Assembly (NCBI GenBank): GCA_965215605.1
Contig: OZ244070.1
Span: forward strand, 3,360,001 to 3,424,000
Direction: 5' to 3'
Source of the DNA: an uncultured Candidatus Binatia bacterium
GTDB lineage: Bacteria > Desulfobacterota > Binatia > UBA9968 > JAJDTQ01
DNA length: 64,000 bases
A program made the position numbers and the translations under genes. Below, one piece after another: positions 4,415 through 62,612 of this stretch (position 1 is the stretch's first letter; each line of letters begins with the position of its first letter). The notes under the pieces are model-generated. The model was given only the letters and a program-made list of their open reading frames with translations, was not told where the DNA came from and made no database searches.

Positions 4415-4860
4415 GCTCTCCCTTCCAAGATGGGAACAGTTGTTTTCTATAAGGAAAATCATTGGGGAAAGCCAATTGTCAATGGCAACGCTACTCAGCG
4501 TTCCTGCCTCTGGGCGTAATGGGTTAACGGGGCCCTTGACACGACAGCGGGTAAGGAAAGGATGAGCCGCCGGGGTAGTCGCTCGCGACTAGTGGTTGGA
4601 CAGTTCGGGGAAGATACTTCCAGCCATGGACAGGTATATGATGGGTTGGAAATCAGGATGACGCGGCCACAGCGTCGTTCGAGTTTTTCGGATCAACTCG
4701 GTCTTCGCGTAAGTGAGCGGAATCTAACCCATGGCGACCACACCGTGCAGAGGCAGCATCTACTTGGCGTCTTGAGTTCAGGATGGTGAATCCGGTTGTT
4801 CCTTATTCGGTCCTCGTCCTGGAAAATAGTCCTCGTGTTTCGATCAGAGTGTCGACTGAC

Positions 4861-5208
4861 TCAAGATTGGTGCGGACCCAGGAGGACGGCCAGCTTCTCC
4901 AACACCTCGGCAATTACCTGCGGTGGGGCCTGCGCCTCGAAACGAATCCGTCGTGCCCGCCAGTCCATGCTCTTGACCTGGTCGGCCAGGACGACACCGG
5001 TGACGTTTCCTCCCGGTGGGAGCGGCACCTCAAAGGGATAGCCTTTGACCCTGGACGTGATGGGACAGAGCAACGCCAAACTCGTCCTCCCGTTATAGCC
5101 ACGCGGACTCAGGATCAGGGCAGGCCGGCGTCCGGCTTGCTCGTGCCCGGCCTGAGGACTGAAGGTGAGCCATACGATGTCCCCGGCCCCTGGGACATGC
5201 TCTACCAT
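4861..5208 (-). CDS. mazF: MazF/PemK family endoribonuclease toxin
   Basis: GDIVWLTFSPQAGHEQAGRRPAL, CPITS and DQVKSMDW motifs; overlaps the antitoxin gene. Confidence 0.93.
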   Translation of the reverse strand: MVEHVPGAGDIVWLTFSPQAGHEQAGRRPALILSPRGYNGRTSLALLCPITSRVKGYPFEVPLPPGGNVTGVVLADQVKSMDWRARRIRFEAQAPPQVIAEVLEKLAVLLGPHQS

Positions 5209-5441
5209 TCCTCGTTGCCTTGTGGCGGGCCGGTCTCCGTTTCCGGATGAAGGTTGTCATCCGTAATCTCGGCGAGCATGTCGGCAAGATTGTAGGTCGC
5301 CTTGCGGATGACGATTCGGTCGCCGCGCGGAACCAGTTCGATGGCGGAGCCTTCACGGACCCCCCATTGCTCAGCGATGGGTTTGGGGATGCGGACGGCC
5401 AGGCTGGCGCCCCATTTGGCGATATGCGACTTGGCACCCAT
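5202..5441 (-). CDS. mazE: MazE/AbrB-type antitoxin
   Basis: KWGASLAVRIP AbrB fold and C-terminal GNEEW; directly upstream of mazF. Confidence 0.92.
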   Translation of the reverse strand: MGAKSHIAKWGASLAVRIPKPIAEQWGVREGSAIELVPRGDRIVIRKATYNLADMLAEITDDNLHPETETGPPQGNEEW

Positions 5442-5460
5442 ATCGACGATCCTCCTCGGA

Positions 5461-5492
5461 ATCTATATTAGATAGTTCTGAGGAGTTTGCAA
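5461..5492 (-). promoter_or_regulatory. Putative mazEF promoter/operator
   Basis: Minus-strand TTGCAA-16nt-TAATAT overlapping the AT-rich inverted repeat ATCTA-tat-TAGAT (5461-5473). Confidence 0.4.
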
Positions 5493-5527
5493 GAACAAGT
5501 CTGAACTAAACCGCTCGCGGTGGCGGT

Positions 5528-5920
5528 TCAGTCCGGCAGCACCACGATCGCCTCGATTTCCACCAGAAAATCGGGATTGGCCAGCCCGGCCGCCACCACC
5601 AGGGTGCTGGCGGGCGGGTTGTCGCCCATGTACTTGAGCCGCGCCGGGTTCAGGGCGTCCCGGAACCGCGGGTCGGTGATGTAGGTGGTGATCTTGACGA
5701 TGTCGCCGAACCCGGCTCCGGCCTCGTCGAGGACGGACTTCATGTTCTTGAGGACCTGCTCGGCCTGGGCCGCGGCGTCGCCCTTGCCGACGATGTTGCC
5801 GTCGGCGTCCACGGCGGTCTGGCCGGCGATGAAGAGCAGGCGTTTCCCCTCGGCGATGATGCCTTGCGAGTAACGCGGCCGCGGATCGGGTATGCTCCCG
5901 GGCTGCAGGATTTTCCTCAT
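5528..5920 (-). CDS. RidA/YjgF family enamine-imine deaminase
   Basis: YSQG, LFIAGQ, PASTLV and LVEIEA motifs; 130 aa. Confidence 0.9.
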   Translation of the reverse strand: MRKILQPGSIPDPRPRYSQGIIAEGKRLLFIAGQTAVDADGNIVGKGDAAAQAEQVLKNMKSVLDEAGAGFGDIVKITTYITDPRFRDALNPARLKYMGDNPPASTLVVAAGLANPDFLVEIEAIVVLPD

Positions 5921-5943
5921 GGTTGCCTCCTTTGTGACGGGTA

Positions 5944-8367
5944 TCAGCGGTAGAGGTGTTCGTCGTCCACCAACGTCTTGGGCTTGCGGATCTGGGGCGT
6001 CAGGGACGGCAGTCCGGAACGCGCCCGGAACAGGAAGTCCACGGGGATGTACTCCTTCAGGAACGGGACCGGCGTCCGCACGCCGGCGTAGGGGCTGACG
6101 GCGTCGTTGCCGATGACCAGCTCGTCGGCGAGAAAGGACTTCGGCACATCCGTGCGCATGCTGATTCCGGAGGTCGTGACGCTGCCCTGCACGACGGGCA
6201 GTCCGTGGCGGTCGGTCTCCTTCTTGCTCAACAGCTCGTGGTCGATGATCGGCGATTCCGGGTCCGCGCCACGGCCGGTCCGCCGGATGAACGCCAGGTC
6301 GGCAGAGTCCGGGTGGCGGTCCGGCGCTTCGAACCGCATCAGACGGGACCGGAAGTCTTCGATGCCGTCCGTGTCGTCCTTGGCGCCCAGCCTGGCGAAC
6401 TCGTAGTGCCTGTCGCGCAGCAGGATTTCCAGGTTGTGGATCCGCTCCGGTGCCACGGAGCGGGTGAGGGTGCGCGTCCCTCGCGGGGTGTCGTAGTGCA
6501 GCAAGATGGTGTTGCGGCCGAGGATGTTGAGGCCGGCCTCCGCCAGCTCCATGTTGTGGACGTTGCCGTCGAAAAGCGTGGTCTTGAGTCCCAGGCCCCG
6601 GACTCCGTAGAGTTGCGGGTTCTCGGTGAGGAACCGTTTGCTGAGCCTCAGGCCCCGACTCTCCGGAGCGGCCAGCCCGGCCAGTTTCACCCTGGCCTGC
6701 TCTCCGGCCGGGGTGTCGGGGTAATATTGCAGAATCGTGGCGTACAGGGTCCGTTGCCGCGCCTTCTTGCCCGTCTGTTCGGCCGCCGTCAACAAGGTTT
6801 GTCCGGCCTCTTTCTCAAGTTCCTGAATTTCTTCCGCCGGAACATTGCCGGACAACCGGTAGTAGTGCAGCGCTTTGTGGGGGTGTCCCTTGCTTTCGTA
6901 GGCTTCCCCCAGCACTTCGTAGACGTCCCCGGACTTCTCGGAGCCGGGACGGGCCCGGACGTAGCCCGCGGCGGCGTCGATCACCGTCTGGTTCGACACC
7001 GGATTGCCGCTGAGAAGCTCCAGCAGGTTGCTGCTCACCATCAGGACGTTGGCGGTGCCCAGGGTGGTGGCTCCGGCGACACCGTGCGTAATGACCGGCG
7101 CCGCTCCGATGACGGCGTTCTTCTCCAGGAAGTCTTCTCCGAACAGGACGAACCGCACCTTGTCCATGCGATGCCCCGAGCGGGCGCGGTCGACGACCCG
7201 CAGCATGTTGTACTCCGGGCTGTTCAGCAGGGTACGCGCCCGCCCTCGCTCCCGCCACGAGGGCGCGCTCCGCGCGATCTCGGTCAGCATCCGTTTCGCG
7301 TCCTCGTGCCGTCCGTCGAGTTCCAGGGCCACGGCCCGGGAGTCCTTGGCCAGGGCCCCCAGAGGTTCGTCCGCGTATCGGTCCGCCATGACGCTCGCTT
7401 GTTTTTCGGTCTTCGCGGGATCCCTCCTGACCAGGGCGTAGAGCAATGCCTGGATCTCGGTCCGTTGTTCCGGCGTGGCGCCGGACAGGTTGTCGCCTTC
7501 GGCCACCGAGAGCAGCTCGCGCCGGTTCTCCCTCTCGGTCTCACGGGCCGCCTCGACCTCCCGGAACCGTTCCACCACGTCTTCCGCCTCGGCGTCCGCC
7601 ACGGCGGCGAGACGGACGTGCAACTCCGCCTCCTCGACCCTGCCCTCGTCGAGCGCCTTGTCGGCCTGTTCCAGTTGTCGATGTATCCAGGCGTCCCTCT
7701 TCTTCGTTCGAAGGACCGCCGCCGTCTCCGCCGCCTCGGCGCTTCCCGGGTGGTCGGGGAACCGGTCCAGGAAGCGTTCGTACAGTACCAGGGCCTTGCG
7801 CTCGGTCTCCGGCATGTACGGCGTCTGCGTCCGCCGCATCTCCGCGTAGGCGGTCTCGAAGGCGGCAGCGGCGTACGAGCCCGAAGCCAGCCGGAAGATG
7901 TCCATGGCCCCCAGCAGCCGGTTCAGGAACCCGCTCCATCGGCCGACATCGTTCTCGGCCAGCAATTCCTCCGCCTGTTCCAGATGGCTCGCGGCGCCGG
8001 GGAAGGTTTCCGCCAGGGCCTCCTCTTCCTCCTGGCCGGCGGAATCGCCGGGCGAGAGCCCTCTCACCGGTCCGGCCAGTCCGGTTGGCTCGGCGCCCCG
8101 CGCCGCCCGTTCCTTGTCCGCCTCTTTCAGAAAGCGGACATGCCCGGGAAGTTGCTCGGTCCGCCGGAGCAGGGTGTCGACGATGGCCCGGCGCGTGCGC
8201 CGCTCGATCGCGTCGGGAAAGTACCTCTCGGCCGTAACGGTTTTCTCGAACGGGTCGAAGTCCCGCGTCGGATCCAGAATTCGCTCGATGGGAACCCCGG
8301 ATGCCTGCGCGGCGGCGGAGCCCGGCAGTGCCAGAAGGATAAAGAGCAGCCATGCGCCGTACTTCAT
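5944..8367 (-). CDS. Large exported TPR-like hypothetical protein (about 807 aa)
   Basis: Likely start MKYGAWLLFILLALPGSAAAQ (signal peptide) at 8367, overlapping the upstream stop (ATGA). Helical TPR-like segments such as ERFLDRFPDHP and ILQYYPDTPA. Confidence 0.75.
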   Translation of the reverse strand: MKYGAWLLFILLALPGSAAAQASGVPIERILDPTRDFDPFEKTVTAERYFPDAIERRTRRAIVDTLLRRTEQLPGHVRFLKEADKERAARGAEPTGLAGPVRGLSPGDSAGQEEEEALAETFPGAASHLEQAEELLAENDVGRWSGFLNRLLGAMDIFRLASGSYAAAAFETAYAEMRRTQTPYMPETERKALVLYERFLDRFPDHPGSAEAAETAAVLRTKKRDAWIHRQLEQADKALDEGRVEEAELHVRLAAVADAEAEDVVERFREVEAARETERENRRELLSVAEGDNLSGATPEQRTEIQALLYALVRRDPAKTEKQASVMADRYADEPLGALAKDSRAVALELDGRHEDAKRMLTEIARSAPSWRERGRARTLLNSPEYNMLRVVDRARSGHRMDKVRFVLFGEDFLEKNAVIGAAPVITHGVAGATTLGTANVLMVSSNLLELLSGNPVSNQTVIDAAAGYVRARPGSEKSGDVYEVLGEAYESKGHPHKALHYYRLSGNVPAEEIQELEKEAGQTLLTAAEQTGKKARQRTLYATILQYYPDTPAGEQARVKLAGLAAPESRGLRLSKRFLTENPQLYGVRGLGLKTTLFDGNVHNMELAEAGLNILGRNTILLHYDTPRGTRTLTRSVAPERIHNLEILLRDRHYEFARLGAKDDTDGIEDFRSRLMRFEAPDRHPDSADLAFIRRTGRGADPESPIIDHELLSKKETDRHGLPVVQGSVTTSGISMRTDVPKSFLADELVIGNDAVSPYAGVRTPVPFLKEYIPVDFLFRARSGLPSLTPQIRKPKTLVDDEHLYR

Positions 8368-9281
8368 CGGTTCCGTCTCCTGATCCCCTGCATCAGGCCC
8401 TTCAACGCCTCGATCTTGCCGTTGGCTTCGAGCTTCTCCGGCGCGCCGTCCTGCTGGGCCACTTCCGCGTAGAGCTCCATGGCGGACTGCGCCAGTTCCT
8501 CGAAGGTTCCCATGTCGAAATCGAGGCCCTCCGGGTCGTTTCGGATGGAATACTCCTTGGCCAGGGTCACGTAATAGTCGCCGAAGTCCAGTTTGTGGCG
8601 ATGGTAGTTCTTGCTCTGTGCATGCCTGGACAGGAGTTCGCTGTAGCCCGCGATCACGAGCTCGTTGCCGTCGTTCATGCGGTGGCGGTTGAGTTCCACG
8701 AACGCTACCTTGGCGCGGTCGGTGCGTTCCGCCTCCACCCGCGCCAGAAATGCCAGCGGCGTTCCCTCGTGTTGCCGGATCAACGCGAGCCATGCCAGCC
8801 ACACATCGTCCAACGCCTCGATATACTTGAACGGATCGTCTTTGGGAAGGGCGGCGCCGGTGATGCGCCGGAACGTTTTCAGCGCGTCGAGATGGCGCCT
8901 TGCCGGCGCCGCCAGCTCCCCGCCGGCCCGGACCACGACCTGGTAGCGGCGGACGGCGCGGTCATAGTGTCCGAGACGTTCGTACGCGCTGGCTCGGGTG
9001 AACTCGACGATGTCCTTGTATCCATCCCCGTGCTTGCGCTCAAAGTCGTCCAGCCTCAATAGCGTCGCCTTCAGGATGTTGGTCCCGGTGACGTCCTTGG
9101 GGGTTTCGAACCGGTAGACGTTCTCGCGCGACAGCCGCTGAAACTCGTTGATGATCTCGAGCAGGTTCGCGGGTTGCACATAGCGAGGGTCCGGCTCCTG
9201 CGTGCGCGAGCAGGCAGCCGTGAGGAGAAGGGCCAACAGGCACGCGGCCGCTACGACTTTGTGGTGATGAGAGAATAGCAC
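8364..9281 (-). CDS. Putative lipoprotein with TPR-like helices
   Basis: GTG start near 9281, lipobox-like LLLTAAC-S, and ASAYERLGHYDRAV TPR-like segment. Confidence 0.7.
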   Translation of the reverse strand: MLFSHHHKVVAAACLLALLLTAACSRTQEPDPRYVQPANLLEIINEFQRLSRENVYRFETPKDVTGTNILKATLLRLDDFERKHGDGYKDIVEFTRASAYERLGHYDRAVRRYQVVVRAGGELAAPARRHLDALKTFRRITGAALPKDDPFKYIEALDDVWLAWLALIRQHEGTPLAFLARVEAERTDRAKVAFVELNRHRMNDGNELVIAGYSELLSRHAQSKNYHRHKLDFGDYYVTLAKEYSIRNDPEGLDFDMGTFEELAQSAMELYAEVAQQDGAPEKLEANGKIEALKGLMQGIRRRNR

Positions 9282-22077: not shown

Positions 22078-22085
22078 CTCCTCAC

Positions 22086-22184
22086 CTTATCTGTCCCTTG
22101 CGGGCCGGAATTAGCACCTGCGTTCCCTTGGGGACGCGGTTGCTGTGGCTTCGACGGGCCTGTCCCTCCACCACTCTGGATAAG
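22086..22184 (-). ncRNA. SAM-I (S-box) riboswitch
   Basis: Minus strand reads CTTATCCAGAG-TGGTGGAGGGACAGGCCC..GAAGCCACAGCAACC..GGTGCTAATTCC..AGATAAG, the canonical SAM-I core. Confidence 0.93.
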
Positions 22185-22258
22185 GCGTCAGTTCGTTACG
22201 GGGATTCTACATGGTTTTCCGTCATTGCGCAATTTCCATAATACGCGGTTCCCGCGTG

Positions 22259-23742: not shown

Positions 23743-24898
23743 TATCCTGTCCGATTAATTAGTTGAAAAACAATACAGGGTGTAGTACCATGGGGAGAAG
23801 GGTGAAGGAGGCACCATGGCACGACCACCAGCAGGGATCGTTTTGAGTGAGGAAGAGAAGGCGGAGCTTGAGAGATGGAGCCGGCGGCGCAATACGCGAG
23901 CGGGTCTTCATCTGAGAGCGGGCGTGATTTTGGATTGCGCGCGAGGTTACACAGGGGAGGAGGTGGCGAAGCGACACCACACGAGCCAGCAGACGGTGTC
24001 GAAGTGGCGGGGGCGGTTCGCCCGAGAGCGACTGGCGGGACTGTCCGATGCTGTACGAAGCGGCCAGCCGCGCAAGCACAACGACATACGGGTGCAGGAA
24101 GTGTTGGACGCGACACTGAATCGACGGCCGAAGCATGCCACGCACTGGAGCGTGCGGAGTTTATCCGAGGACCTGGATGTGCCACGGGATTTCGTTCATC
24201 GTGTATGGCGAGCATTCGGGCTCAAACCTCACCTGTCGCGAAACTTCAAGCTATCCACCGATCCGCACTTCATCGACAAGGTGCGGGACGTGGTGGGTCT
24301 TTATCTGAATCCGCCGGACAAGGCGCTGGTGTTGTGCGTGGATGAAAAAAGCCAGATTCAGGCATTGGACCGTACCCAACCCGGTTTACCGCTGAACTAC
24401 GGCACACCCGAGACTCGGACCCATGACTATCGGCGCTATGGCACCACCACGCTGTTCGCCGCACTGGAGGTAGCCACGGGTCGAGTGTTGGGCAAGCTGC
24501 ACCGCCGGCACAGAAGCCAAGAGTTCATCGCCTTCTTGCGCCACATCGACTCGCAGGTCCCGGCCGCCTTGGAAGTCCACCTCATTCTCGACAACTACGG
24601 TACCCACAAGACCGCCCAAGTCAAGAATTGGCTGTTACGACACCCCCGATTCCACTGTCATTTCATCCCCACCTACAGTTCCTGGATGAACTTGGTGGAG
24701 CGCTTCTTCGCAACCTTGTCCGAACACCAGTTACGCCGAGGCACCTACCGCTCCGTGGTCGCTCTGGAGAAAGCCATACGAAATTACCTCGACCTGCACA
24801 ATCAACATCCCAAGCCGTTTCGTTGGACCAAGTCCGCTGATGCCATCATTGACTCCGTCACCAGCGTTATTAAACGAATTAACCAGACACCACACTAG
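23739..24898 (+). mobile_element. IS630-family insertion sequence
   Basis: CTAG at both junctions (TA target), imperfect TIRs (21/28 identity), lower GC than the flanks, single transposase. Confidence 0.92.
23816..24898 (+). CDS. IS630 transposase (intact DDE)
   Basis: HTH N-terminus; CVDEKS, ILDNY and NLVERFF catalytic motifs; stop codon lies in the right-end CTAG. Confidence 0.95.
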
Positions 24899-43234: not shown

Positions 43235-45193
43235 TCACCTGGGCAGCTCGAAGTTTCCCCGAACGCCGGCGAAGAAGCCTATGCCGGTGGTACGGTATTC
43301 CCGCAACTCGAAAGAACGAAGTTCATAGTAGTCCTTGTCGAAAAGGTTCTCGATCCGTCCGAAGAACTCGATGGCCTTGGTGACGCTGTACTTGCCGGCC
43401 ACATTCACGAGGACATAGGACGGCACCTTGGGGTGATGGTGCTGGTCCACCTGCTTGCCGTTGTAGTCGATGCCAAGGTCGACGGCGGCCCGGCCGTCGA
43501 GAAGGTCGTAACCGGCGTTGGCGCTGGCAATATGCTTGGCCCGCCGTCTGAGAGGCCGGCCTTGTGTGTCCTTTGCGTCGGTGTAGGTGTACTGGGCGGA
43601 CAGGTTCATTCCCTCTGCCGGCTTGGCCTTGACGCTGAATTCCCAGCCGCGAATTCTGGAGGTGCCCGCCAGGTTGTCGTAGAAGTCGTCGTTGAAGTCG
43701 GTGGTGCCGGCGTTATTCCAGTAGATCAGGTCCGTCGGCCGGCTGTCGAAGTACGTCAGATCCGTCGAGAGGCGACCTTCGAGGAGATCTTGCCCGACCC
43801 CGACATCCCAACCCTTGCTTTTCTCCGGCTGCACGTCGGGGTTCGGGCCGAGGCGGCCGAACCGTTGGAAGGAGTGCGACAGGGTGGGGTTCTTGACCCC
43901 GGTGCCGTAGCTGCCGTGTAGTCGCGTCCCGGTTTCGGCATGCAGGTACGCGGCCGTCAGCCGGTAGGTGGAGGTGTTCTTGAAGCGCTCGTTGTCATCG
44001 TAGCGAACCCCGCCGGACAAGAAGAGCCGGTCCGCGAACCCCACCTGGTACTCGCCCGAATGGCTCTGGTTCGTAAAGCTGGGTCTGGTGTCGCCGGTGA
44101 CGTGGGAATCCTTCTCGCGCTCGGTCAGGAAAGTCACGGCGTGGGTCGCGTCGACCCCGGCTGACGTTTCAAAGGAGACGTTGGTCTCGTAGTCGACACC
44201 CAACCTCCGGCCGTCGAACCTGTTGTGTCTGTCGGTGCTGTCGTCGAAGAAGTCCCGCTTCATCCGGACGGTGGTCGCCCCCGCCGCATGACTCCATGCG
44301 CCGTCGAACAGGTTGTACTTCAGTTGGGTCCGGCCGGTCCATCGGTCCCCGTCCGTCTCGTCGCCGTCGTCGGGTGTGGCCCCCCTGGAACTGCTTTGAC
44401 CGTCCGTTTCCAGGTTGGTTCTCACGTAGCGGCCGGATAGTTCCAACTCCAGGTCTTCCATCAATTCGAAGCCGAATCGGGCGTTGTAGGTTTGGTTCCG
44501 ATACCCGTCCTTCTCCGGTCCCGGGGCAATCGAAATTCCGGAAGTCCTGTAACCCGTGGCGCTCAGGGAGAAATGGTAGCCTTCGCCCCCGCCTCGGAAG
44601 CCGGTCATGACGTTGGCTGTTCCGAATGATCCACCTTCCACGCCAAGGCTCGCGGTTGCGGGGCCGCGGCCCTTCCGGGTGATGATGTTGATCACCCCGC
44701 CAATGGCGTCGCTGCCGTAGAGTCCGCTCTGCGGTCCGCGCAGGACTTCGATCCGTTCGACATTCGAGGTCAGCAGATGGCCGAAATTGTACGTGGCATT
44801 ACTGTCAGAGGGATCGTTCACCTTGACTCCGTCGATGATCACGAGGGTGTGTCCCGGCTCGCCGCCGCGTATCCGCACCGCGGTCTGGGTACCCAAGGGA
44901 CCCGACCGGTGCACCGCCACCCCCGGCACCTCCCGGAGCAGGTCGGAAACGACACGGGCCTGCTTGCGCTCGATCTCCTCGGCGGTGATGACCGTGACCG
45001 CGCTGCCCACGGCCTTGGCCTCCAGGGGCACCCGGCTCGCGGACACCACGATCTCCGGGAGCTGTTGGACTTCTTCGCCGGCCACCGGCCCCGGCGGCGT
45101 CTGCCTCGTGTCGTCCGTCTGGGCGCGGACGGTACCGGGCTGTAGGGTCAGCAGCACGAAAAGGGTGACGGCACCCGTAGTGAGGGACTTCAT
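43235..45193 (-). CDS. btuB: TonB-dependent cobalamin receptor
   Basis: Signal peptide, TonB box EIVVSA, plug motif RIEVLRGPQS.LYG and ENLFDK.Y; preceded by a cobalamin riboswitch. Confidence 0.88.
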   Translation of the reverse strand: MKSLTTGAVTLFVLLTLQPGTVRAQTDDTRQTPPGPVAGEEVQQLPEIVVSASRVPLEAKAVGSAVTVITAEEIERKQARVVSDLLREVPGVAVHRSGPLGTQTAVRIRGGEPGHTLVIIDGVKVNDPSDSNATYNFGHLLTSNVERIEVLRGPQSGLYGSDAIGGVINIITRKGRGPATASLGVEGGSFGTANVMTGFRGGGEGYHFSLSATGYRTSGISIAPGPEKDGYRNQTYNARFGFELMEDLELELSGRYVRTNLETDGQSSSRGATPDDGDETDGDRWTGRTQLKYNLFDGAWSHAAGATTVRMKRDFFDDSTDRHNRFDGRRLGVDYETNVSFETSAGVDATHAVTFLTEREKDSHVTGDTRPSFTNQSHSGEYQVGFADRLFLSGGVRYDDNERFKNTSTYRLTAAYLHAETGTRLHGSYGTGVKNPTLSHSFQRFGRLGPNPDVQPEKSKGWDVGVGQDLLEGRLSTDLTYFDSRPTDLIYWNNAGTTDFNDDFYDNLAGTSRIRGWEFSVKAKPAEGMNLSAQYTYTDAKDTQGRPLRRRAKHIASANAGYDLLDGRAAVDLGIDYNGKQVDQHHHPKVPSYVLVNVAGKYSVTKAIEFFGRIENLFDKDYYELRSFELREYRTTGIGFFAGVRGNFELPR

Positions 45194-45230
45194 GGCAATC
45201 TTCCTTTCCCGCGAAGGCGGATTGTGGATG

Positions 45231-45403
45231 GAAGACGGACAGGTCTCCTGGCTTGGGCATTCTGGCAGTCCGTGCCGGCTGCCGGCCTACACACCGCGCC
45301 TTCCCACCCGCCGGACGGGCAGTGGCTTGAGTTGCGGTTTTCGTAGCCGTTACAGTTGCGGGGCAGCAGGGGATTCACACCCCTTTCCCTGGCGTCCGTC
45401 TTC
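45231..45403 (-). ncRNA. Cobalamin riboswitch upstream of btuB
   Basis: AGGGAA..GCTGCCCCCGCAACTGT..GCCACTG..GGGAAGG..AGCCAGGAGACCTG, closed by P1 GAAGACGGAC/GTCCGTCTTC. Confidence 0.88.
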
Positions 45404-45445
45404 AGGCCGTTAAACTTGGTGACTCAGGATCGGTTCACTCGTGAT

Positions 45446-46299: not shown

Positions 46300-46310
46300 G
46301 GTTGCTTTCC

Positions 46311-46479
46311 GTCTTCAGGTAGGTCTCCTGGCTCGTGGGCTGGTCGTTTCGACCGCCTTGCCGCCTTCCCATTCCCGGGCGGGGAACAGTGGCACGCTGG
46401 CAAGGGTTCCCACTTACAGTGGCGGGACCGCACCGGATTTCAACCGGTTTCCCTGTTATCCCGTAAGGGACCTGAAGAC
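46311..46479 (-). ncRNA. Cobalamin riboswitch upstream of tonB
   Basis: AGGT..AACAGGGAAACCGGTTGAAATCCGGTGCGGTCCCGCCACTGT..GCCACTG..GGGAAGG..AGCCAGGAGACCT, with P1 GTCTTCAGG/CCTGAAGAC. Confidence 0.92.
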
Positions 46480-46576
46480 CGCGCGGCCGAGAGGCCGCTC
46501 GTCGAAACGATACTTAGCCGTGCGGGGAGGCCTTGTCAAGGCGGCGGCAAGGCTCCCCGTGGCGAGGGACATCGGC

Positions 46577-47586: not shown

Positions 47587-48360
47587 TCATGCCGGCCCGG
47601 CGATGGTTATGTTCCAGTCGCCGTCGATGCGCCGCACCGCGGCCCGTACACCATAGACCTCGGCCATGCGTTCCGCGGTCAGCGTTTCCGCCGCCGTCCC
47701 GTCCGCAACGATGCGCCCCCCGTGGATCCACGCCAGCCGGTCGGCGAAGCGCGCGGCCAGGGCGGCCTCGTGCAGCACCACCAACGCGGCGTTGCCGGCG
47801 TCGGCGTAGCCGCGGATCAGGCTCATGACCTGATGTTGGTGGAGCGGGTCCAGGGCTTCCGTGGGCTCGTCGGCGAGCAGGATCGGCGCTTCCGCGGCCA
47901 GGGCCCGCGCCACGTGGGCACGGCACAGCTCGCCCCCCGACAGCGTGTCGCACGGGCGGTCCGCGAGGGCCCGGAGGTCACAGGCGGAAAGCGCCCGTTC
48001 CACCGCGGCGGCGTGTTTGCCCCGCAGCCGTCCGGACGGGACGCCATGGGCGAACCGCCCGAGGGCCACCACGTCCCGCACCCTCACCGGCCACGCCAGC
48101 GGCCGGGACTGCGGCAGGTAGGCGATGCGCCTGGCCCGCTCGGCCGCGGGCAGGCGGGCCGGGTCGTCATCTCCCGCGCGCACCTTGCCCCGGCCGCGAT
48201 CAACCAGGCCCAGGACGGACCGAAGCAGCATGGTCTTGCCCGCGCCGTTGGGGCCGAGCAGGACCACCAACTCACCCGGATGCACCCGTACCGACGCGCC
48301 GCGCAGCACCTCGTGCCGCCCCAGCGTCACATCGACGTCCTGCACCGAGAGCTCAGCCAC
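47587..48360 (-). CDS. btuD: Cobalamin/iron ABC transporter ATPase
   Basis: GPNGAGKT, LSGGE and LADEPT motifs; GTG start overlapping the permease. Confidence 0.85.
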   Translation of the reverse strand: MAELSVQDVDVTLGRHEVLRGASVRVHPGELVVLLGPNGAGKTMLLRSVLGLVDRGRGKVRAGDDDPARLPAAERARRIAYLPQSRPLAWPVRVRDVVALGRFAHGVPSGRLRGKHAAAVERALSACDLRALADRPCDTLSGGELCRAHVARALAAEAPILLADEPTEALDPLHQHQVMSLIRGYADAGNAALVVLHEAALAARFADRLAWIHGGRIVADGTAAETLTAERMAEVYGVRAAVRRIDGDWNITIAGPA

Positions 48361-49342
48361 TGCCCGTCCGCCTCCTCGCGGCGATCCACACGAAGACCGG
48401 CGCCCCCAGCAACGCCGCCACCACCCCGAGCTTGAGCTCCGTGTCGGTGGGCGCAACCCGTACGCCGATATCCGCCAGCACCAGCAGCAGTCCCGCCAGC
48501 AAGGCCGACGGCGCCAGCGTGCGGGCGGGATCGTGGTCCACCAGCGGCCGTACCAGGTGCGGCGCGACGATGCCGACGAAGCCGATGGCGCCGGCAACGG
48601 CCACCGCCGCGCCGGTGGCCAAGCCCGCGCCCAACACCACCAGCCGCCGGATCCGGGGCAGGTCCACCCCCACGGCCGCCGCCCCCTCCTCGCCCAGGGT
48701 CAGGGCCGAGAGGCCGCGCCGTCCGGCGAAGAGAATGGCCAGACCGGCCAGCAGGAACGGCGCCGCCGGCACGAGGTCGTCGAAGCTCCGGTTGGCCACG
48801 GTTCCCAGCATCCAGTTCAGCATGTCGGAAAGGGAGAACGGATGGGGCGCCAGATTCATCAACAACGCCATCAGCGCCCCCGCGAAACTGGAAAGCCCGA
48901 TTCCCACCAGGATCAGCGTCACCACCGAGCCCACGCGCGCGGCCGCCACGGTCAGAAGGCCGGTGGCCGCCAGGGCGCCGGCAATGGCGGCCAGGGGCAA
49001 AGCGAAGGCCTGGGCGTTGGCGAGTCCGTAGTAGATGACGAAGGTGGCGCCGAGGGCGGCGGTGGCGGATACGCCCAGAACCCCCGGCTCGGCCAAGGGG
49101 TTCCGCAGGAGTCCCTGCAACGCCGCGCCCGATGTCCCCAGCGCCGCGCCCACCACCAGCGCCGCCACCGCCCGCGGCAGCCGGATCTCCCACACCACCA
49201 CGCGGTCGCCGGCCGATGCCCCTCCCGTCAGGGCGGACAGAACCCGGTCGAGGCCCAGCGGGGTGGAGCCCACCAGGCACGCCGCGGCCAGCGCCGCCAG
49301 CACGGCCGCCGCCAGCGTGATGAGAACGCCGCGGTCAGTCAC
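48353..49342 (-). CDS. btuC: Cobalamin/iron ABC permease (FecCD family)
   Basis: RLPRA, RNPLAEP and GAIGFVGI.APH motifs. Confidence 0.88.
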   Translation of the reverse strand: MTDRGVLITLAAAVLAALAAACLVGSTPLGLDRVLSALTGGASAGDRVVVWEIRLPRAVAALVVGAALGTSGAALQGLLRNPLAEPGVLGVSATAALGATFVIYYGLANAQAFALPLAAIAGALAATGLLTVAAARVGSVVTLILVGIGLSSFAGALMALLMNLAPHPFSLSDMLNWMLGTVANRSFDDLVPAAPFLLAGLAILFAGRRGLSALTLGEEGAAAVGVDLPRIRRLVVLGAGLATGAAVAVAGAIGFVGIVAPHLVRPLVDHDPARTLAPSALLAGLLLVLADIGVRVAPTDTELKLGVVAALLGAPVFVWIAARRRTGSG

Positions 49343-50285
49343 GGCCCGGTCCGCGCGACGGCGATTCCCGGAGCGAGGGCGCTCTTCCCTCGCCGCCGGC
49401 CGCGGACCCCGGTGCCGGGGTGTCCGGGCGGAGGGCGGCCAAGGCCTCTACCGCGTCGGCCACGAACCAGCCGCCGCACGACGTGGTGGCGCCGTCCAGA
49501 AGCGCCACCGGGACCGACGCCATGGCCCGCCGGGCCACCGGATGCCGGAACGGAGTCCATGCGTCGTCATGGTTGGTGCCCTCTCCGAAGGTGGCCTTGG
49601 CCACCAGGTCCGGAGTCTCGTAGGCCAGACGTTCGAGCGGAATCGGCCGCCAGCCGCGCCGGGCCTGGAAATTGTCGAGGCCGGCGGCCGCCAGCAGGTC
49701 ATGCACGAGGGTGCCCGGTCCGGCGGTATAACCCGCCGGCGTCACGTAGAACGCCCTCGTGCCGGAAGCGTGGAGCCGTGCCTCGCGGAGCCGTGCGTCC
49801 ATCTCCGCGATCAGCGCTTCGCCCCGTTCCGGCACGCCGAGCCCCCGGGCGGCGTGCCGGATCACCGAACGTGCGCCGTCGATGTCGTCGGCGAACCCGA
49901 TCTGCAGCACCGGTACGCCGGCCCGCTCGAAGAAACCCCGGGCGTTGGGGCCGCCGCCGTAGGAACGCACCACCAGGTCCGGCTCGAGCAGCAGGACGTC
50001 TTCCGCCCGCGGCCGGACGGTTGGCAACCCGGCCGCGGCGGCGCGCATGTACGAGAACTCGGCGCCGGCGTCCGGCGACACCGCCAGGATGTCACGGCGG
50101 TGGGCAAGCCCGAGCACGTACTGGTCCGCGCAGTAGTCCAGGCTGACGACGCGGCGGGCCGTGGAGCGGCTAGAAGGAGGCTCTGTGCATGCAGCGAGGA
50201 AAGCGCATACGGTCAGCGCCAGCGCGACCGGTTTCGCCACCAAGGCCAAAGTCCCTCGGAGCCGTCGGATCTGGCACGGCCTCAA
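49335..50285 (-). CDS. btuF: Cobalamin ABC substrate-binding lipoprotein (start uncertain)
   Basis: Lipobox FLAAC, RVVSLDYCADQ and EPDLV motifs; operon context. Confidence 0.8.
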   Translation of the reverse strand: MRPCQIRRLRGTLALVAKPVALALTVCAFLAACTEPPSSRSTARRVVSLDYCADQYVLGLAHRRDILAVSPDAGAEFSYMRAAAAGLPTVRPRAEDVLLLEPDLVVRSYGGGPNARGFFERAGVPVLQIGFADDIDGARSVIRHAARGLGVPERGEALIAEMDARLREARLHASGTRAFYVTPAGYTAGPGTLVHDLLAAAGLDNFQARRGWRPIPLERLAYETPDLVAKATFGEGTNHDDAWTPFRHPVARRAMASVPVALLDGATTSCGGWFVADAVEALAALRPDTPAPGSAAGGEGRAPSLRESPSRGPGRD

Positions 50286-57515: not shown

Positions 57516-57659
57516 GGATCTGTTGCCCGGGTCGAGAGGTCGCGAGCCGCGGGAGACGAAACCAGCGGGTACTCGTCCGGCATGAGGACCAGCATCCTAC
57601 ACGGGTGAGCGCCAAAAAAAAATGTGTACATCCCAAGCCCGCATGGTCGCCACCGCCTT

Positions 57660-57688
57660 TGGACCCCGGGTCAAGCCCGGGGCGGCGG
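57660..57688. repeat. REP-like palindromic element
   Basis: TGGACCCCGGGTCAAGCCCGGGGCGGCGG; 25/29 identical to 61163-61191. Confidence 0.7.
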
Positions 57689-57721
57689 AAAGGGCGCCCG
57701 GGGTGATTCGCGGCCGCTTGC

Positions 57722-57750
57722 TTGACACCCCCACGCCGTTTCCGTATTGC
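57722..57750 (+). promoter_or_regulatory. Putative sigma70 promoter of the hydratase operon
   Basis: TTGACA-17nt-TATTGC followed by RBS GGAGG. Confidence 0.5.
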
Positions 57751-57770
57751 TGAAAACCACGGAGGACGCC

Positions 57771-58079
57771 ATGCGCAGCACCCATGACATGGGCGGGGAC
57801 CCCGCGGCGGGGGCCATCGACCGCTCGCAGCACCAGTTGGACGACTGGGAGATTCTTGCCGACGCCCTGAACCAGGTGGCGGGGGTCAAGGGCATCAAGC
57901 GCACCGACGAGACCCGGCGGGCGCGCGAGGAGATGGATTCGGAGGCGTATCTGTCCCTCAGCTACTACGAGCGCTGGATTGCCAGCCTGGAGACGATTCT
58001 GGTGGAGAAGGGTTTCATGACCCGCGAAGAGATCGACCGGAAGGTGGCGGAGCTCGAAGAGAAGTGGGGCGAGCCGTGA
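57771..58079 (+). CDS. Nitrile hydratase beta N-terminal half (thiocyanate hydrolase beta-like)
   Basis: HDMGG, DWE, DETRRARE, YLSLSYYERW and LVEKG motifs; separate 102-aa gene. Confidence 0.85.
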   Translation: MRSTHDMGGDPAAGAIDRSQHQLDDWEILADALNQVAGVKGIKRTDETRRAREEMDSEAYLSLSYYERWIASLETILVEKGFMTREEIDRKVAELEEKWGEP

Positions 58080-58381
58080 GCGGCGGGGAGGGTTTCCGGG
58101 ACGGTGAGGCGGTCCGGGTGAAGTCTCACTTCAAGCCGGGCCACGTGCGCACGCCGTTCTACATCAAGGGCAGGACTGGGTGGGTGGAGCGCTGCTACGG
58201 CGAGTTCCGCAACCCGGAATCCCTGGGACACGGCGGCGACGGCCTGCCACGGGTGCGGCTCTACCTGGTGGGGTTCCGTCAGAAGGACGTGTGGGAGGGT
58301 TATGACGCCGCCAGCCAGGACAAGGTTTTCGTCGACATCTTCGAGCACTGGCTCGAGCCCGCCGCGCAAGCGGGTCCATGA
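58076..58381 (+). CDS. Nitrile hydratase beta C-terminal SH3-like half (thiocyanate hydrolase alpha-like)
   Basis: GHVRTP.YIKG, LY.V.F, DIFEHWLEP motifs; GTGA overlap with the upstream gene. Confidence 0.85.
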   Translation: MSGGEGFRDGEAVRVKSHFKPGHVRTPFYIKGRTGWVERCYGEFRNPESLGHGGDGLPRVRLYLVGFRQKDVWEGYDAASQDKVFVDIFEHWLEPAAQAGP

Positions 58382-59031
58382 GTTCGGGGGAGGAAGAAAT
58401 GGCACACGAGCACGGTCTCGGAGAAGAACACGAGGCGGGCCCCAGGCATGAGTTGAGCCACTGGGCCAAGCGGGCGTACGCCGTGCGCGACATCCTCGTC
58501 GAGAAGGGCGTGGTGACCGAGGAGGACATTCGGCAGCAGGCGGAGCTCACCGAGTCCAGGACGCCGGCCAACGGCGCCAAGCTGGTGGCCCTTGCCTGGA
58601 CCGACCCTGCCTTCAAGGCGCGGCTCGTGGCCGACTCGAAGAAGGTCTGCGCGGAAATGGGCATCGACGCCACCACCCTCAACGAGTTCGTGATCCTGGA
58701 GAACACGGAACGTGTGCGCCACATGGTGGTGTGCACCCTGTGCTCGTGCTACCCGCGTCCGATCCTCGGACGGCCGCCGGATTGGTACAAGAGCTTCAAT
58801 TACCGCAAGCGCGCGGTGAACGATCCGCGAGGGGTCATGCGGGAGTTCGGCCTGGAATTGCCCGAAGACGTGGAGGTGAGGGTACACGACAGCACCGCGG
58901 ACATGCGCTACCTGGTGATCCCAGCGCGCCCGGCGGGCACCGAGGACCTGAGCGTCGAAGAGCTGGAGAAGCTGGTGACCCGCGACAGCATGATCGGGGT
59001 GATGGACGCCTTGCCCGCCGTTCCGGAATGA
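58378..59031 (+). CDS. Co-type nitrile hydratase alpha / thiocyanate hydrolase gamma-like subunit
   Basis: Metal site VCTLCSCYPRPILG; AWTDPAFK and VTRDSMIG motifs; His-rich N-terminus (start may be 58399). Confidence 0.92.
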   Translation: MSSGEEEMAHEHGLGEEHEAGPRHELSHWAKRAYAVRDILVEKGVVTEEDIRQQAELTESRTPANGAKLVALAWTDPAFKARLVADSKKVCAEMGIDATTLNEFVILENTERVRHMVVCTLCSCYPRPILGRPPDWYKSFNYRKRAVNDPRGVMREFGLELPEDVEVRVHDSTADMRYLVIPARPAGTEDLSVEELEKLVTRDSMIGVMDALPAVPE

Positions 59032-59040
59032 GGGGCCGTC

Positions 59041-60216
59041 ATGTTCCATGTTGACCTGTCACCGTTCGGGGTGGACGTCGAGCGCCTCAAGACCGACCGT
59101 CTGAGCCGCCTGCAGGGCATCATGCGCGCCCGTGGCCTGAGCGCGCTGCTGCTGACCGACCCGCTCGACATCCGCTATGCCACCAACACGGTGTTGTGGC
59201 TCAATCTGCGCGCCACCGGAGTGCAGCGCTTCGCGCTGGTGCCGGCCGAAGGCGAGCCGGTGGTGTACGAGCGCCTGATGGGCAGCGAGCGCGCCGCCGG
59301 GCTCAAGAAGGGGGGTTCGATTCAGGGCTTCGGGGCCTACATGTTCGGCATGCGTCCGCCGGTGGCCACCGAGCATTTCGTCGACCTGGTGGCGGAAGGG
59401 TTGGCGGAGATGGGTCTCGGCGGGGAGCGTATCGGCATCGACGCGCTGTGTCTGACCGCGGTGGACCTCCTTCGGAACAAGGGCGTCGAGGTCGTGGACG
59501 GGCTTCCGGCGCTGGGCGAGTCGCGCGTGGTCAAGACCCGGGACGAGGTGGAGCTCATCCGCTGGACGAGCCGCGCCAAGGAGGGCGGCTACGACCTCGT
59601 GCGGGAGGCCATCCGCAAGCCGCCGGTGGTGGAAGAGCGGTTGAGCCGCATGATGCTGGAGTACCTGCTGGAGCGGGGTTTCGAGGCCGGCAGCGAGTTC
59701 ATCTCCATCTTCGATTCCTCACAGATCGCCATCCGGCCGCATCGCGAGCCCATGGGCATGGACATGGTGATGACCGAGGGAGACCTGGTCATCTGTGACG
59801 CCACGGTGTCCGGCCCCGGGGGCTACTACAGCGACTTCGCCCGGACCTTCTGTCACGGCACTCCCTCCCAGGCCGACAAGGACCGTTACGCCGAGGCCTA
59901 CGCCACGCTGCAGGAAGCGATGGGTTACGTCCGGCCCGGCCCGTGCACCGCGCTGTTCGAGCGCTTCGGCAAGGACTCGCCCTCCCGCCTGCCGGGACTG
60001 GACGGCTTCCACGGCGTCGGCATGTGCATCTACGAGGCGCCGTGGCTCAGAGGCTACGATCCGCGGGAGTACGAGCTTTCGCTGGAAGAAAACATGATCA
60101 TCGCGCTGGAGATCAACCACCACCCGGTGAAGCTCGAGCACCTGCTCCGGATCACCGCCGACGGGGCGGAGATCCTTTCGACCTACCCGATGGAGCCGGA
60201 GCTGGCCCCGGCCTAG
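59041..60216 (+). CDS. M24 family metallopeptidase/amidohydrolase
   Basis: Creatinase-like N-domain (DIRYAT); metal ligands in CDAT, SDFART, FHGVG, ALEI and LEH. Confidence 0.85.
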
Positions 60217-61106
60217 GCGGGCGCCAGCATCTTCTCCACGAAGAACTCCGCCGCCCGGTAGGAGCTTCGCACCATGGGGCCGGCGGCCACGTAGCGGAAG
60301 CCCAGCCCCATACCCTGTTTTTCATAGTCCCGGAAGCGGTCCGGGTGCAGGTATTCGGCCACCGCGACGTGCTTCTTCGTGGGCCGGAGGTACTGGCCCA
60401 AGGTGAGGATGTCCACGTCCCGGGCCCGCAGGTCCCGCATGGCTTCCAGGACCTCTCCAGCCTTTTCTCCCAGACCCAGCAGGATCGCGCTCTTGGTGTA
60501 GACCCGGGGGTTCAGGCTCTTGACGCGGGCCAGCACGTCCAGGGTCTGCTCGTAGCCGCACCGCGCGTCGCGGGCGTAGCGGGTGAGGCGTCGGACGGTT
60601 TCGATGTTCTGGCCGATGACTTGCGGGGCGGCGTCGACGATTGTGCGGAGCGCGGCCAAGTCGCCGCGAAAATCCGGGATCAGCGCCTCGATGATCAGGT
60701 CCGGGCAGCGCCGGCGGGTCTCACGGATGGTGTCGGCGAAGGTCCCCGCGCCGCCGTCCTCCAGGTCGTCCCGGTCTACGGAGGTGATGACCACGTAGCG
60801 GAGGTTCATCCGCGCCAGCGCCTCGGCCACGCGTCCGGGCTCGTCCGGATCGACCGGAACGCCGGCCTTGGCGGTCTTGACGGCGCAGAACCGGCACCCG
60901 CGGGTGCACACGTCCCCCAGGATCATGATGGTGGCGGTGCCGGACTGCCAGCACTCGGCCAGGTTGGGGCAGCGGGCCTCCTCGCATACCGTGTGCAGCT
61001 TCAGCCCGCGGAAGCTTTCCTTGAGGCGGTTGTAGGCGGCGCCGGAAGGCAGCCGGACCTTGAGCCACGGCGGTTTGTGTCCTGGCTGCGGGCGTGGGTC
61101 GGTCAT
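60213..61106 (-). CDS. lipA: Lipoyl synthase
   Basis: [27 protein letters not shown] and RSSY motifs. Confidence 0.96.
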
Positions 61107-61122
61107 CAATTTCCAGACTAAC

Positions 61123-61304
61123 CCACGGCTGGGGAAAAGGCCATCGAACAGCATGGCCCCCCTGGACCCCGGGTCAGGTCCGGGGTGACGGGAGGGGAGG
61201 CCACGGCTCGGGAAGAGACCGTCGAGCTGCGGGGCTCGTGGGTCAAGCCTCGGGATGCCGGAGGGCAGACCCAACGTCATCCCGAGGCTTGACCCACGAG
61301 CCCC
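61123..61304. repeat. BIME-like mosaic of REP elements and linkers
   Basis: 30-bp linker repeated at 61123 and 61201 (24/30), REP at 61163-61191, and a perfect 27-bp inverted repeat at 61231-61257/61278-61304. Confidence 0.75.
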
Positions 61305-61316
61305 ACCGACCACGGA

Positions 61317-62612
61317 TCACGACTCGAAGTAGCCTCCGACGATGGCGTCGTGCCAGAGACGGCACACCGGCGGAATGATGCCGCGCGGGAGGTCGTCGTA
61401 GGTGAGGCCCCAGGTGTGGATGCCGGCGCCCAGCGAGACGCAGGCGACCTTGGGCGCAGGGTCCATGGCCGCGTAGAGCGGCAGCGAGTCGCAGCACCGC
61501 TGGAGCGTTACGGTGTCGTCGTCGAGCCCGTGAAGCGAGAGCACGGAGGGAACCGGCTTGGCGCCGGGGCCCGGCAGTTCCCGCAGGTAACCGAGGTAGC
61601 GGTCGACAAGCTGTTGCTCGGCGGCGGCTCCCATCCTGAGGCGCCCGGCGGTGACCCGGGCCGCCTGTTCCAGCGCGGCGGCGCCGTTCTTGTGGACGAA
61701 GTCCTCGGCCTTGAAGTTGGTGCGTTTCCGGGACGCCTCCCACTTCTCCATCGTCAGCTCCATCAGCATGGGCAGGCCGTAGCCCTTGTCCTTGAGCCCT
61801 TCGTAGAGGTAGCGGGCGGTGTCGCGCCAGGTCCGCAGCCGCAGGTGGTTGAACGGGAACTCCCACCGGTCGCCGGTGGTGGCGGTGTAGATGTAGGCAA
61901 ACGTCGACGAGCCGTACCCCAGCACGCCCGCGACGTTGGCCACCCGTTGGGCCGTGATCATGGCGAAGGGTCCGCCGGTGGAGTGGCCGTGGACGTAGAT
62001 TGAATACTCGGATTCGGGGAACTCGCGGCGGCAGCTCTCCTTCAGCGCTTCCTCGAAGGCGACGGGCCAAGCGGCCATGCGATGGTAGAACTCGGTTCCC
62101 TCTCGGGCCACCAGCGAGATCACGGTGCCGTAGCTGCTGCGGCGGGCGTCGTCCCGAGCGACCTCGTACTGATCGGGGGTGATGTGGGTCTCCCGGGTCC
62201 ACAGCGGCGTCCGTCCGGTGCCGTCGGGCTCCAGCGTGTCGCCGGGCCAGTCACGGGAAGGGTCCAGGAGGTACAGGCGTCCCGGAAAGGTCATCAGCGT
62301 GACCTTGAAGCCGAACTTCGTGGCGAGCATGCGGGCCACCGGCTCCAGCGACTTGTAGTCCGACGTGCCGCCGTGCAGCAGGAAGATGCCGGCGCGCCTT
62401 CCGTCCGGGGCCATGGGGACCCGGCCCGGGTCCTTGGGCTCGTAGGTCATGGTGCCGATGTCCCAGTCCATGTCCAGGGCCTGGATGCGGAAGATGTCCT
62501 CGCGGTTTTCCACCGCGATATCGGGCAGCGCCAGGGTCTCCTCCGACAGCTTGACGACCTCGGGACGGGGAATGGTGCCGGGCGGCGCCCATGTGCCGGT
62601 TGGTTGATTCAT
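61317..62612 (-). CDS. Hypothetical alpha/beta-hydrolase-fold protein
   Basis: LLHGG oxyanion motif, nucleophile elbow GHSTGG, HGLDD and a C-terminal His. Confidence 0.65.
   Translation of the reverse strand: MNQPTGTWAPPGTIPRPEVVKLSEETLALPDIAVENREDIFRIQALDMDWDIGTMTYEPKDPGRVPMAPDGRRAGIFLLHGGTSDYKSLEPVARMLATKFGFKVTLMTFPGRLYLLDPSRDWPGDTLEPDGTGRTPLWTRETHITPDQYEVARDDARRSSYGTVISLVAREGTEFYHRMAAWPVAFEEALKESCRREFPESEYSIYVHGHSTGGPFAMITAQRVANVAGVLGYGSSTFAYIYTATTGDRWEFPFNHLRLRTWRDTARYLYEGLKDKGYGLPMLMELTMEKWEASRKRTNFKAEDFVHKNGAAALEQAARVTAGRLRMGAAAEQQLVDRYLGYLRELPGPGAKPVPSVLSLHGLDDDTVTLQRCCDSLPLYAAMDPAPKVACVSLGAGIHTWGLTYDDLPRGIIPPVCRLWHDAIVGGYFES

Follow-up and report, generated by a model that had tools for sequence, protein, structure and literature searches.

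A predicted three-subunit cobalt-type nitrile hydratase operon with a downstream M24 metallohydrolase gene in an uncultured Candidatus Binatia bacterium

Organization of the operon

The genomic stretch of 64,000 nucleotides investigated here (contig OZ244070.1 of an uncultured Candidatus Binatia bacterium; hereafter referred to as the window) harbors at positions 57771-60216 four plus-strand genes, which encode the N-terminal and the C-terminal half of a nitrile hydratase (NHase) beta subunit (beta-N and beta-C), a cobalt-type (Co-type) NHase alpha subunit and a metallohydrolase of the M24 family. The beta-N/beta-C/alpha/M24 operon is self-contained between its flanking genes and is, in our judgment, likely to encode an activator-independent three-subunit Co NHase of the beta-N/beta-C/alpha type. 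The following features were assigned to the operon and its upstream region:

57516-57770, no strand: intergenic region common with the divergent cobU, presumed site of the operon promoter (sequence read)
57771-58079, plus strand: NHase beta N-terminal half, 102 residues (PF21006, E 1.7e-22; positions 1-99 of 226 in TIGR03888)
58076-58381, plus strand: NHase beta C-terminal (SH3-like) half, about 101 residues (PF02211, E 2.3e-19; TIGR03888 positions 138-226)
58378-59031, plus strand: Co-type NHase alpha, 217 residues, or 210 residues from ATG 58399 (PF02979, E 7.7e-80)
59041-60216, plus strand: M24 metallohydrolase with creatinase/prolidase N-domain, 391 residues (PF00557, E 1.7e-16; PF01321, E 4.2e-9)

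The beta-N gene starts with ATG 57771 and is preceded by the sequence GGAGGA (57760-57765), 6 nt upstream. The start of beta-C is most likely GTG 58076, which shares the sequence GTGA with the stop codon of beta-N; the longest open reading frame (ORF) of beta-C extends from 58064, and the alignments of its homologues begin at residue 4-5 of this longer version. The ATG of alpha at 58378 overlaps the beta-C stop codon as ATGA; the internal ATG 58399 may nevertheless be the true start, because the homologues consist of 209-210 residues and begin at the equivalent Met. The M24 gene starts 9 nt past the alpha stop codon, with a Shine-Dalgarno-like GAGGGG at the junction. An earlier note on this DNA had described a beta subunit split into two coupled genes, a succeeding Co-type metal subunit and an M24 gene 9 nt downstream; all of this is borne out by the Pfam matches, the overlapping start and stop codons and the sequence itself. 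Upstream of the operon, the promoter and terminator scans gave no usable signal, no sigma-70-like site was called in 57516-57770, and the Rfam scan returned a chance-level match only, i.e. no riboswitch ahead of the operon.

The earlier note had also seen neither an amidase nor an activator gene. Indeed, the 47 gene calls of the window that were scanned contained neither an amidase-signature, CN-hydrolase or formamidase protein nor an accessory protein of NHases, although these stem from a simple caller based on G+C content at third codon positions (GC3), which short genes could escape. No ORF reached the cut-off of 46 on the NHase accessory model TIGR03889; only beta-N scored weakly (21.9 bits).

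Metal site and arginine residues

The metal site of the alpha subunit (CTLCSCYPRPILG) reads C119-T-L-C122-S123-C124-Y-P-R127, and beta-N contains the motifs D46-E-T-R49-R50 and YYERW; both the Co-type CTLCSC followed by YPR (alpha 119-127) and the beta-N Arg-Arg pair (R49-R50, in DETRR) had been noted before. The catalytic set of NHases is retained, comprising CTLCSC, Arg49 and YYERW of beta-N, and the Arg of the beta-C motif GHVR. The N-terminal tail of alpha carries His at residues 10, 12, 18, 24 and 28.

Instead of an NHase, the operon could encode a thiocyanate hydrolase (SCNase) that converts SCN- to carbonyl sulfide and ammonia, with Arg127 and the beta-N Arg pair binding the anion, as the earlier note had considered; according to the present analysis this is very improbable. 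The three-subunit architecture would agree with it, and so would the ungapped alignment to SCNase gamma, in which alpha Cys119/Cys122/Ser123/Cys124 correspond to gamma 128/131/132/133 and Arg127 corresponds to gamma 136; moreover, the SCNase beta chain possesses Arg-Arg at the position aligned with the beta-N pair. These SCNase Arg residues reportedly bind the anion, for which the literature search gave no confirmation; nothing was found in it on the role of Arg136.

The profile scores, however, place the window alpha among the NHases: it passed the NHase alpha model TIGR01323 (261.2 bits versus a cut-off of 249.85), whereas it failed the equivalog model of SCNase gamma, TIGR03887 (205.4 bits versus 291.45). 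As controls, an scnC gene labelled by PGAP on a Roseomonas plasmid (locus L081) scored 359.2 on TIGR03887 and 211.3 on TIGR01323, while the nthA of a Streptomyces three-subunit locus (L085) behaved like the window alpha (267.5 on TIGR01323, 230.8 on TIGR03887). Both beta halves stayed below the TIGR03888 cut-off of 152.2 (beta-N 75.8, beta-C 69.9), because each represents one half of the full-length model. Among the PDB matches of alpha, Co-type NHase alpha subunits were best (206-230 bits), and SCNase gamma ranked 29th of 36 with 165 bits; for beta-C, SCNase alpha was the last and weakest of 25 matches.

The gene neighborhood likewise argues against an SCNase. The SCNase genes of Thiobacillus thioparus are reportedly arranged as beta-alpha-gamma. 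The cited part of a review gives alpha-beta-gamma-activator (PMC7193024), and an activator gene is missing from the window operon. The scnABC genes are flanked by genes for cyanase, a cobalt-transporter subunit, an ABC (NitT/TauT) transporter, TusA and sulfide:quinone reductase, as far as described in the cited section of PMC5328954; in the window survey, no cyanase, sulfide:quinone reductase, TusA, NitT/TauT or cobalt-uptake genes were located beside the operon. With the SCNase-gamma profile failed, the NHase-alpha profile passed and scn-type neighbors not beside the operon, the SCN- hydrolase considered in the earlier note is not supported.

Distribution of the split beta subunit and the arginine features

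A single scan of GTDB species genomes with alpha as query yielded at least 538 related stretches, the best 80 of which were analyzed as loci. Their alpha identities range from 90% (Candidatus Binatia metagenome-assembled genomes, MAGs) down to 51% (Roseovarius, Jannaschia, Stellaceae, Rubrobacteraceae and others), and Binatia, Rubrobacteraceae, Rhodobacterales and Stellaceae are represented among their hosts. CTLCSCYPR was present in all 80 loci. In 74 of them the two beta halves could both be identified, the best matches never being located in one ORF; the remaining six are truncated at a contig end or gave no beta-N match. The beta-N Arg-Arg pair occurred in 78 of 81 aligned sequences (the exceptions being two with Arg-Lys and the canonical Rhodococcus sequence with Arg-Gly), and His-rich alpha N-tails were found throughout the 80 loci except in L037, which is cut at its contig start. 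In a broader family sample, consisting of the 150 nearest representatives of clusters at 50% identity, CSCYP was followed by R in 53 cases, by W in 24, by T in 10, by S in 9 and by L in 8, other residues being rarer; in 13 representatives the search pattern detected no motif.

The Streptomyces plasmid locus (annotated as nitrile hydratase/SH3-like/nthA) has the layout of the window, CSCYPR and Arg-Arg. The labelled scnC genes likewise encode CSCYPR, so that this motif cannot separate NHase from SCNase; their beta chain contains EERRR. Judged from these alignments, a wide NHase branch is characterized as a class by the split beta subunit, by Arg following CSCYP and by the Arg pair of beta-N; since these traits are present across the nearest loci and in the nthA-labelled Streptomyces locus, they are not diagnostic of an SCNase. 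The suggestion of SCNase-like Arg residues thus stands as far as the correspondence of Arg127 to gamma 136 and the Arg-Arg of SCNase beta are concerned, whereas the pattern as such is common across the NHase branch. The SCNase-looking traits are the usual condition in a large NHase branch that has received little study and in which the textbook YPW motif is found in only 24 of 150 representatives. Loci of this branch lie in unremarkable housekeeping neighborhoods in several phyla.

Some plasmid-borne loci showed other arrangements. On plasmids of Agrobacterium (L083:4559-5896) and Microvirga (L084:4590-5941), a permuted split NHase is encoded in the order beta-C, alpha, beta-N, followed downstream by aquaporin and CbtA/CbtB genes in Agrobacterium and, after a gap, by the gene of a HoxN cobalt transporter in Microvirga. 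At the PGAP-labelled scnC loci of Roseomonas (L081:4032-5681) and Azospirillum (L082:4039-5681), the beta chain is fused (283 residues); each of the two possesses a TauE/SafE exporter gene and insertion sequence elements within few kb, and the metal-transport gene after scnC is CbtA/CbtB in Roseomonas and HupE/UreJ in Azospirillum.

Phylogeny of the alpha subunit

A quick tree of 128 rows (25 of the 80 loci, six plasmid references and those of the 150 representatives matching from query residue <=40 to >=200) and a careful tree of 40 rows, from which two long-branch rows were excluded, were calculated; the approximately unbiased (AU) test was run on the 42-row set. One Streptomyces plasmid locus served as stand-in for AnhA/ToyJ, and two PGAP-labelled scnC genes for the T. 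thioparus ScnC. In the careful tree the canonical YPW/TAW enzymes constituted one clade (100/99), and the quick tree gave the same picture. The window alpha was placed in a supported 11-row clade (96/87) composed of loci of the Binatia type and of Rubrobacteraceae together with two representatives, which did not comprise either scnC; the scnC pair formed a separate, weakly supported group (84/86). The phylogenetic comparison with scnC, which the earlier note had proposed as a check, therefore did not turn out in favor of its SCNase proposal: as far as the alpha sequences tell, the tree lends membership in the SCNases no support, and a distant sister relation of the window clade to scnC is compatible with the AU result, the joining of the two being left unrejected (p 0.445).

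The M24 metallohydrolase and its linkage to the NHase genes

The M24 protein matched PF00557 with 61.1 bits (cut-off 23) and reached none of the NCBIfam equivalog cut-offs, with DddP (NF043017) as the highest-scoring model. An identity as dimethylsulfoniopropionate lyase DddP is not supported (79 bits versus a cut-off of 600; the true DddP encoded in locus L070 reached 881.5 bits). The five metal ligands, assigned by alignment to prolidase, are D253, D265, H324, E357 and E366, and all 26 homologues (63-92% identity) retain them without exception, which makes an active metalloenzyme probable. The His of the 'HE' pair in the aligned prolidase is replaced by an invariant Tyr331. An AlphaFold2 model built with the 26 close homologues had a mean predicted local distance difference test (pLDDT) score of 62.6, and the fold search gave DddP as top match (TM score 0.40, root-mean-square deviation 17 Å); because the model is poor, this adds little beyond the sequence matches. 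A protein-atlas search returned M24 clusters only, the best being a Binatota cluster that is perhaps its own. Tblastn against plasmids gave 25 best matches listed at about 29% identity and no record of at least 60%; M24 homologues of 62-65% identity are numerous, some of them in Binatia- or Phototrophicaceae-labelled records.

For the linkage count, 75 loci were used whose sequence continues for at least 1300 nt past alpha. The M24 gene follows directly in nine of them (L001-L008 and L010), which have 82-90% identical alpha subunits and all belong to the clade of the window. Two minus-strand genes beyond the M24 gene are of relevance to this count:

60213-61313, minus strand: lipA, with about 75 extra N-terminal residues versus lipoyl synthase models (match from residue 76-80)
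61317-62612, minus strand: protein of 431 residues with a sub-threshold Lipase_3 match only, 80-91% identical beside lipA in 8 of 9 close relatives

The true start of lipA is probably located downstream of 61313, judging from these alignments. Eight of the nine M24-linked loci (not L007) also keep lipA and the 431-residue gene, and seven keep nupC (78-93% identity); since the close loci share this block, the M24-NHase adjacency is, by these comparisons, not of greater age than the synteny in general. Among 25 loci of the sister group, whose alpha subunits are 67-79% identical, none had M24 downstream; instead, an unrelated protein of about 160 residues is encoded directly after alpha in 19 of them (e.g. 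L013:9225-9749, plus strand; L009:7624-8136, plus strand), followed by a DnaJ-domain protein. The 160-residue protein matched no Pfam or NCBIfam model and is absent from the window and the M24-carrying loci. In Rhodobacterales (15 loci), a lipid-A-acyltransferase-like gene follows alpha instead. Neighbor clusters 12, 14 and 15 were dropped, as they were read as off-frame or antisense artefacts. A second, independent M24-NHase adjacency was found in locus L073, an alphaproteobacterial MAG, where a DddP-like M24 gene (6071-7585, minus strand; 397.7 bits, below 600) lies divergently beside a three-subunit CSCYPR NHase.

These observations bear on the question whether NHase and M24 protein act together in two steps of a dedicated pathway, in which the nitrile would be hydrated to the amide and the latter cleaved to acid and ammonia by the binuclear M24 enzyme in place of a signature amidase; in analogy to the preference of M24 aminopeptidases, the substrate would plausibly bear a free amino group. 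We hold such a pathway to be possible yet rather doubtful. It would be consistent with the common strand, the 9-nt gap and the GAGGGG at the alpha/M24 junction, with the direct downstream position of M24 in all nine loci of the window's clade, with the lack of an amidase-type gene among the 47 gene calls, with metal ligands that are invariant (26/26) in a protein below every named-function cut-off, and with the unrelated L073 arrangement. Conversely, the linkage reaches no deeper than the lipA/431-residue gene/nupC synteny, the sister group encodes the 160-residue protein (19 of 25 loci) and not M24 (0 of 25), M24 homologues of 62-65% identity are abundant, and a literature search for an NHase linked with an M24 enzyme found no paper, the sole match to 'M24' being a strain name. 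The conservation of the linkage, on which the earlier note had placed weight, is thus restricted to one shallow syntenic clade (9 of 75 loci; none of 25 in the sister group). Because of this restriction, the operon structure remains as the single argument for its proposal that M24 replaces the amidase; the related proposal of a new hydratase for anionic nitriles, paired with M24 as amidase, is possible, its basis being the operon structure in one shallow clade.

The nupC-family gene of the same block leads to a further alternative, i.e. a ToyJKL-like hydratase whose substrate would be a 7-cyano-7-deazapurine (preQ0 or a nucleoside resembling toyocamycin) imported by the nearby NupC, which we consider hardly credible. 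ToyJKL is a three-subunit NHase, and the Streptomyces canus enzyme branches with that of Streptomyces rimosus according to the cited part of a review (PMC13243292); the gene of the nupC family, situated on the opposite strand at a distance of 2.4 kb downstream, is kept in 7 of 9 close loci. Yet nupC is convergent, lipA and the 431-residue gene intervene, its synteny does not exceed in depth that of the block as a whole, and no deazapurine biosynthesis genes were found in the window survey.

Predicted function of the operon

As an activator-independent Co NHase, the three translationally coupled products would assemble like an NHase alpha-beta protomer with the beta subunit cut in two. The Cys119/Cys122/Ser123/Cys124 claw of alpha is expected to bind non-corrin Co(III), and the conserved Arg and Tyr residues of beta would aid the hydration of the C-N triple bond to the amide. 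The absence of an activator would be explained by the use of the beta-N subunit as metal and swapping chaperone in this class, as in S. canus, with the His-rich alpha tail plausibly capturing cobalt. The substitution of the canonical Trp by Arg127 would render the pocket more polar or cationic, from which a small polar nitrile is probably the substrate rather than a bulky hydrophobic one. The M24 gene would be co-transcribed, and its product may hydrolyze the amide or a related compound, the link being recent.

Several points weigh against the assignment as an NHase of this type. The effect of Arg127 on the pocket is inferred from sequence, and that the window's clade has NHase activity is itself a sequence-based prediction. 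The Streptomyces stand-in (L085) fell in another sub-branch than the window in both trees; the non-canonical branch lacks a resolved backbone, and the AU test leaves the window clade plus scnC unrejected as one clade. Finally, beta-N scored nearly alike against SCNase beta (42.9 bits) and the best NHase beta (43.9 bits).

More specifically, the M24 protein of the Binatia clade might be a new metallo-amidase recruited into a nitrile pathway whose Arg-lined NHase would hydrate a small polar nitrile, such as an alpha-aminonitrile or an N-cyano compound, with ammonia then set free from the amide by the binuclear M24 protein; this combined proposal is speculative and appears unlikely at present. 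If true, it would be the first M24 member to replace the signature amidase in nitrile catabolism, and a functional M24 coupling would mean a new amide-cleaving partner for nitrile metabolism.

Cobalt supply and the neighboring B12 genes

The genes cobT, cobS, cobC, cobD, cbiB, cobQ and cobU are situated directly upstream of the operon and are not co-directional with it. Among L001-L040, cob genes were found upstream in five of the nine close loci but nowhere else; the adjacency to the B12 genes is, by this comparison, probably incidental. By analogy, a built-in cobalt handling via the conserved His-rich alpha tail is plausible, because the tail is conserved and activator-free maturation is described in the literature. 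Of the two hints at cobalt handling put forward in the earlier note, the His-rich N-terminus is kept across the branch, whereas the B12 genes adjoin the operon in only five of nine relatives.

Other features of the window

Outside the operon and its flanks, the following features were recorded:

4861-5208, minus strand: ORF of a MazF/PemK-like toxin, inside the low-G+C region 1-6000
5944-8802, minus strand: ORF of 952 residues with coding-like GC3 and no Pfam match at E <= 1e-6
22084-22186, minus strand: S-adenosylmethionine (SAM) riboswitch ahead of a cluster of ThiF, ThiS and pyridoxal-phosphate (PLP) enzyme genes
23816-24898, plus strand: DDE_3 transposase
43235-45193, minus strand: TonB-dependent receptor, just downstream of the cobalamin riboswitches on the same strand
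45221-45414 and 46301-46490, minus strand: two cobalamin riboswitches
48353-50285, minus strand: FecCD and binding-protein genes, further along from the TonB-dependent receptor

The first 6000 positions of the window deviate in G+C content (0.53-0.60 versus about 0.67).

Comparison with known systems

Canonical two-subunit Co-type NHases with activator, such as that of the Rhodococcus rhodochrous nthB-nthA-accessory-amidase locus, share with the window enzyme the alpha and beta folds, CTLCSC and about 52% alpha identity. They differ in their unsplit beta subunit, in YPW instead of YPR and in Arg-Gly instead of Arg-Arg in beta; genes for an accessory protein, for a cobalt transporter and for a signature amidase accompany them, and they belong to the separate canonical clade (100/99).

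The three chains of ScnABC from T. thioparus (PDB 2dd4) are homologous to beta-N, beta-C and alpha, and the enzyme has a Co-type Cys claw, Arg at gamma-136 and Arg-Arg in the beta-N homologue as well. On the other hand, alpha and beta-C of the window are nearer to NHases, the operon is without activator, and the host lineage is that of a Binatia-like heterotroph. The plasmid-encoded scnC products exhibit GHSPYW after the motif in contrast to GRPPDW in the window, and their loci encode a fused 283-residue beta chain in place of two chains.

With DddP and the prolidases, the M24 protein shares the creatinase/prolidase N-domain, the pita-bread C-domain and all five metal ligands; its identity to the solved DddP and prolidases amounts to about 21-24%, and the DddP match is full-length but weak.

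A close counterpart is known from Streptomyces. According to the cited part of PMC7329996, the NHase of S. canus CGMCC 13662 is of Co-type and composed of subunits of 10.4, 11.4 and 21.3 kDa; its genes are ordered anhD-anhE-anhA, AnhD and AnhE being the N and C parts of beta, and its substrates acetamiprid, thiacloprid and benzonitrile are all neutral. The same passages state that no activator gene was found in the S. canus genome, that cobalt is inserted without activator, and that AnhD acts as metal and self-subunit-swapping chaperone. The cited part of a 2026 review (PMC13243292) repeats these findings. None of the papers listed by a literature search on NHase in Binatia mentions nitrile hydratase. 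The alpha subunit of the Streptomyces plasmid stand-in is 54.6% identical to that of the window over the aligned part, with the same layout, CSCYPR and beta-N Arg-Arg; its locus continues with aquaporin and HoxN cobalt transporter genes, that of the window with M24. By description, AnhD-AnhE-AnhA and the window operon agree in the order beta-N, beta-C, alpha, in their small subunits, in the Co-type metal site and in being activator-free. The activator-free beta-N/beta-C/alpha type, which the earlier note had named as the best candidate in the window for an undescribed system, has thus already been published for S. canus (PMC7329996, in the part cited), and the window operon is best described as a further member of it.

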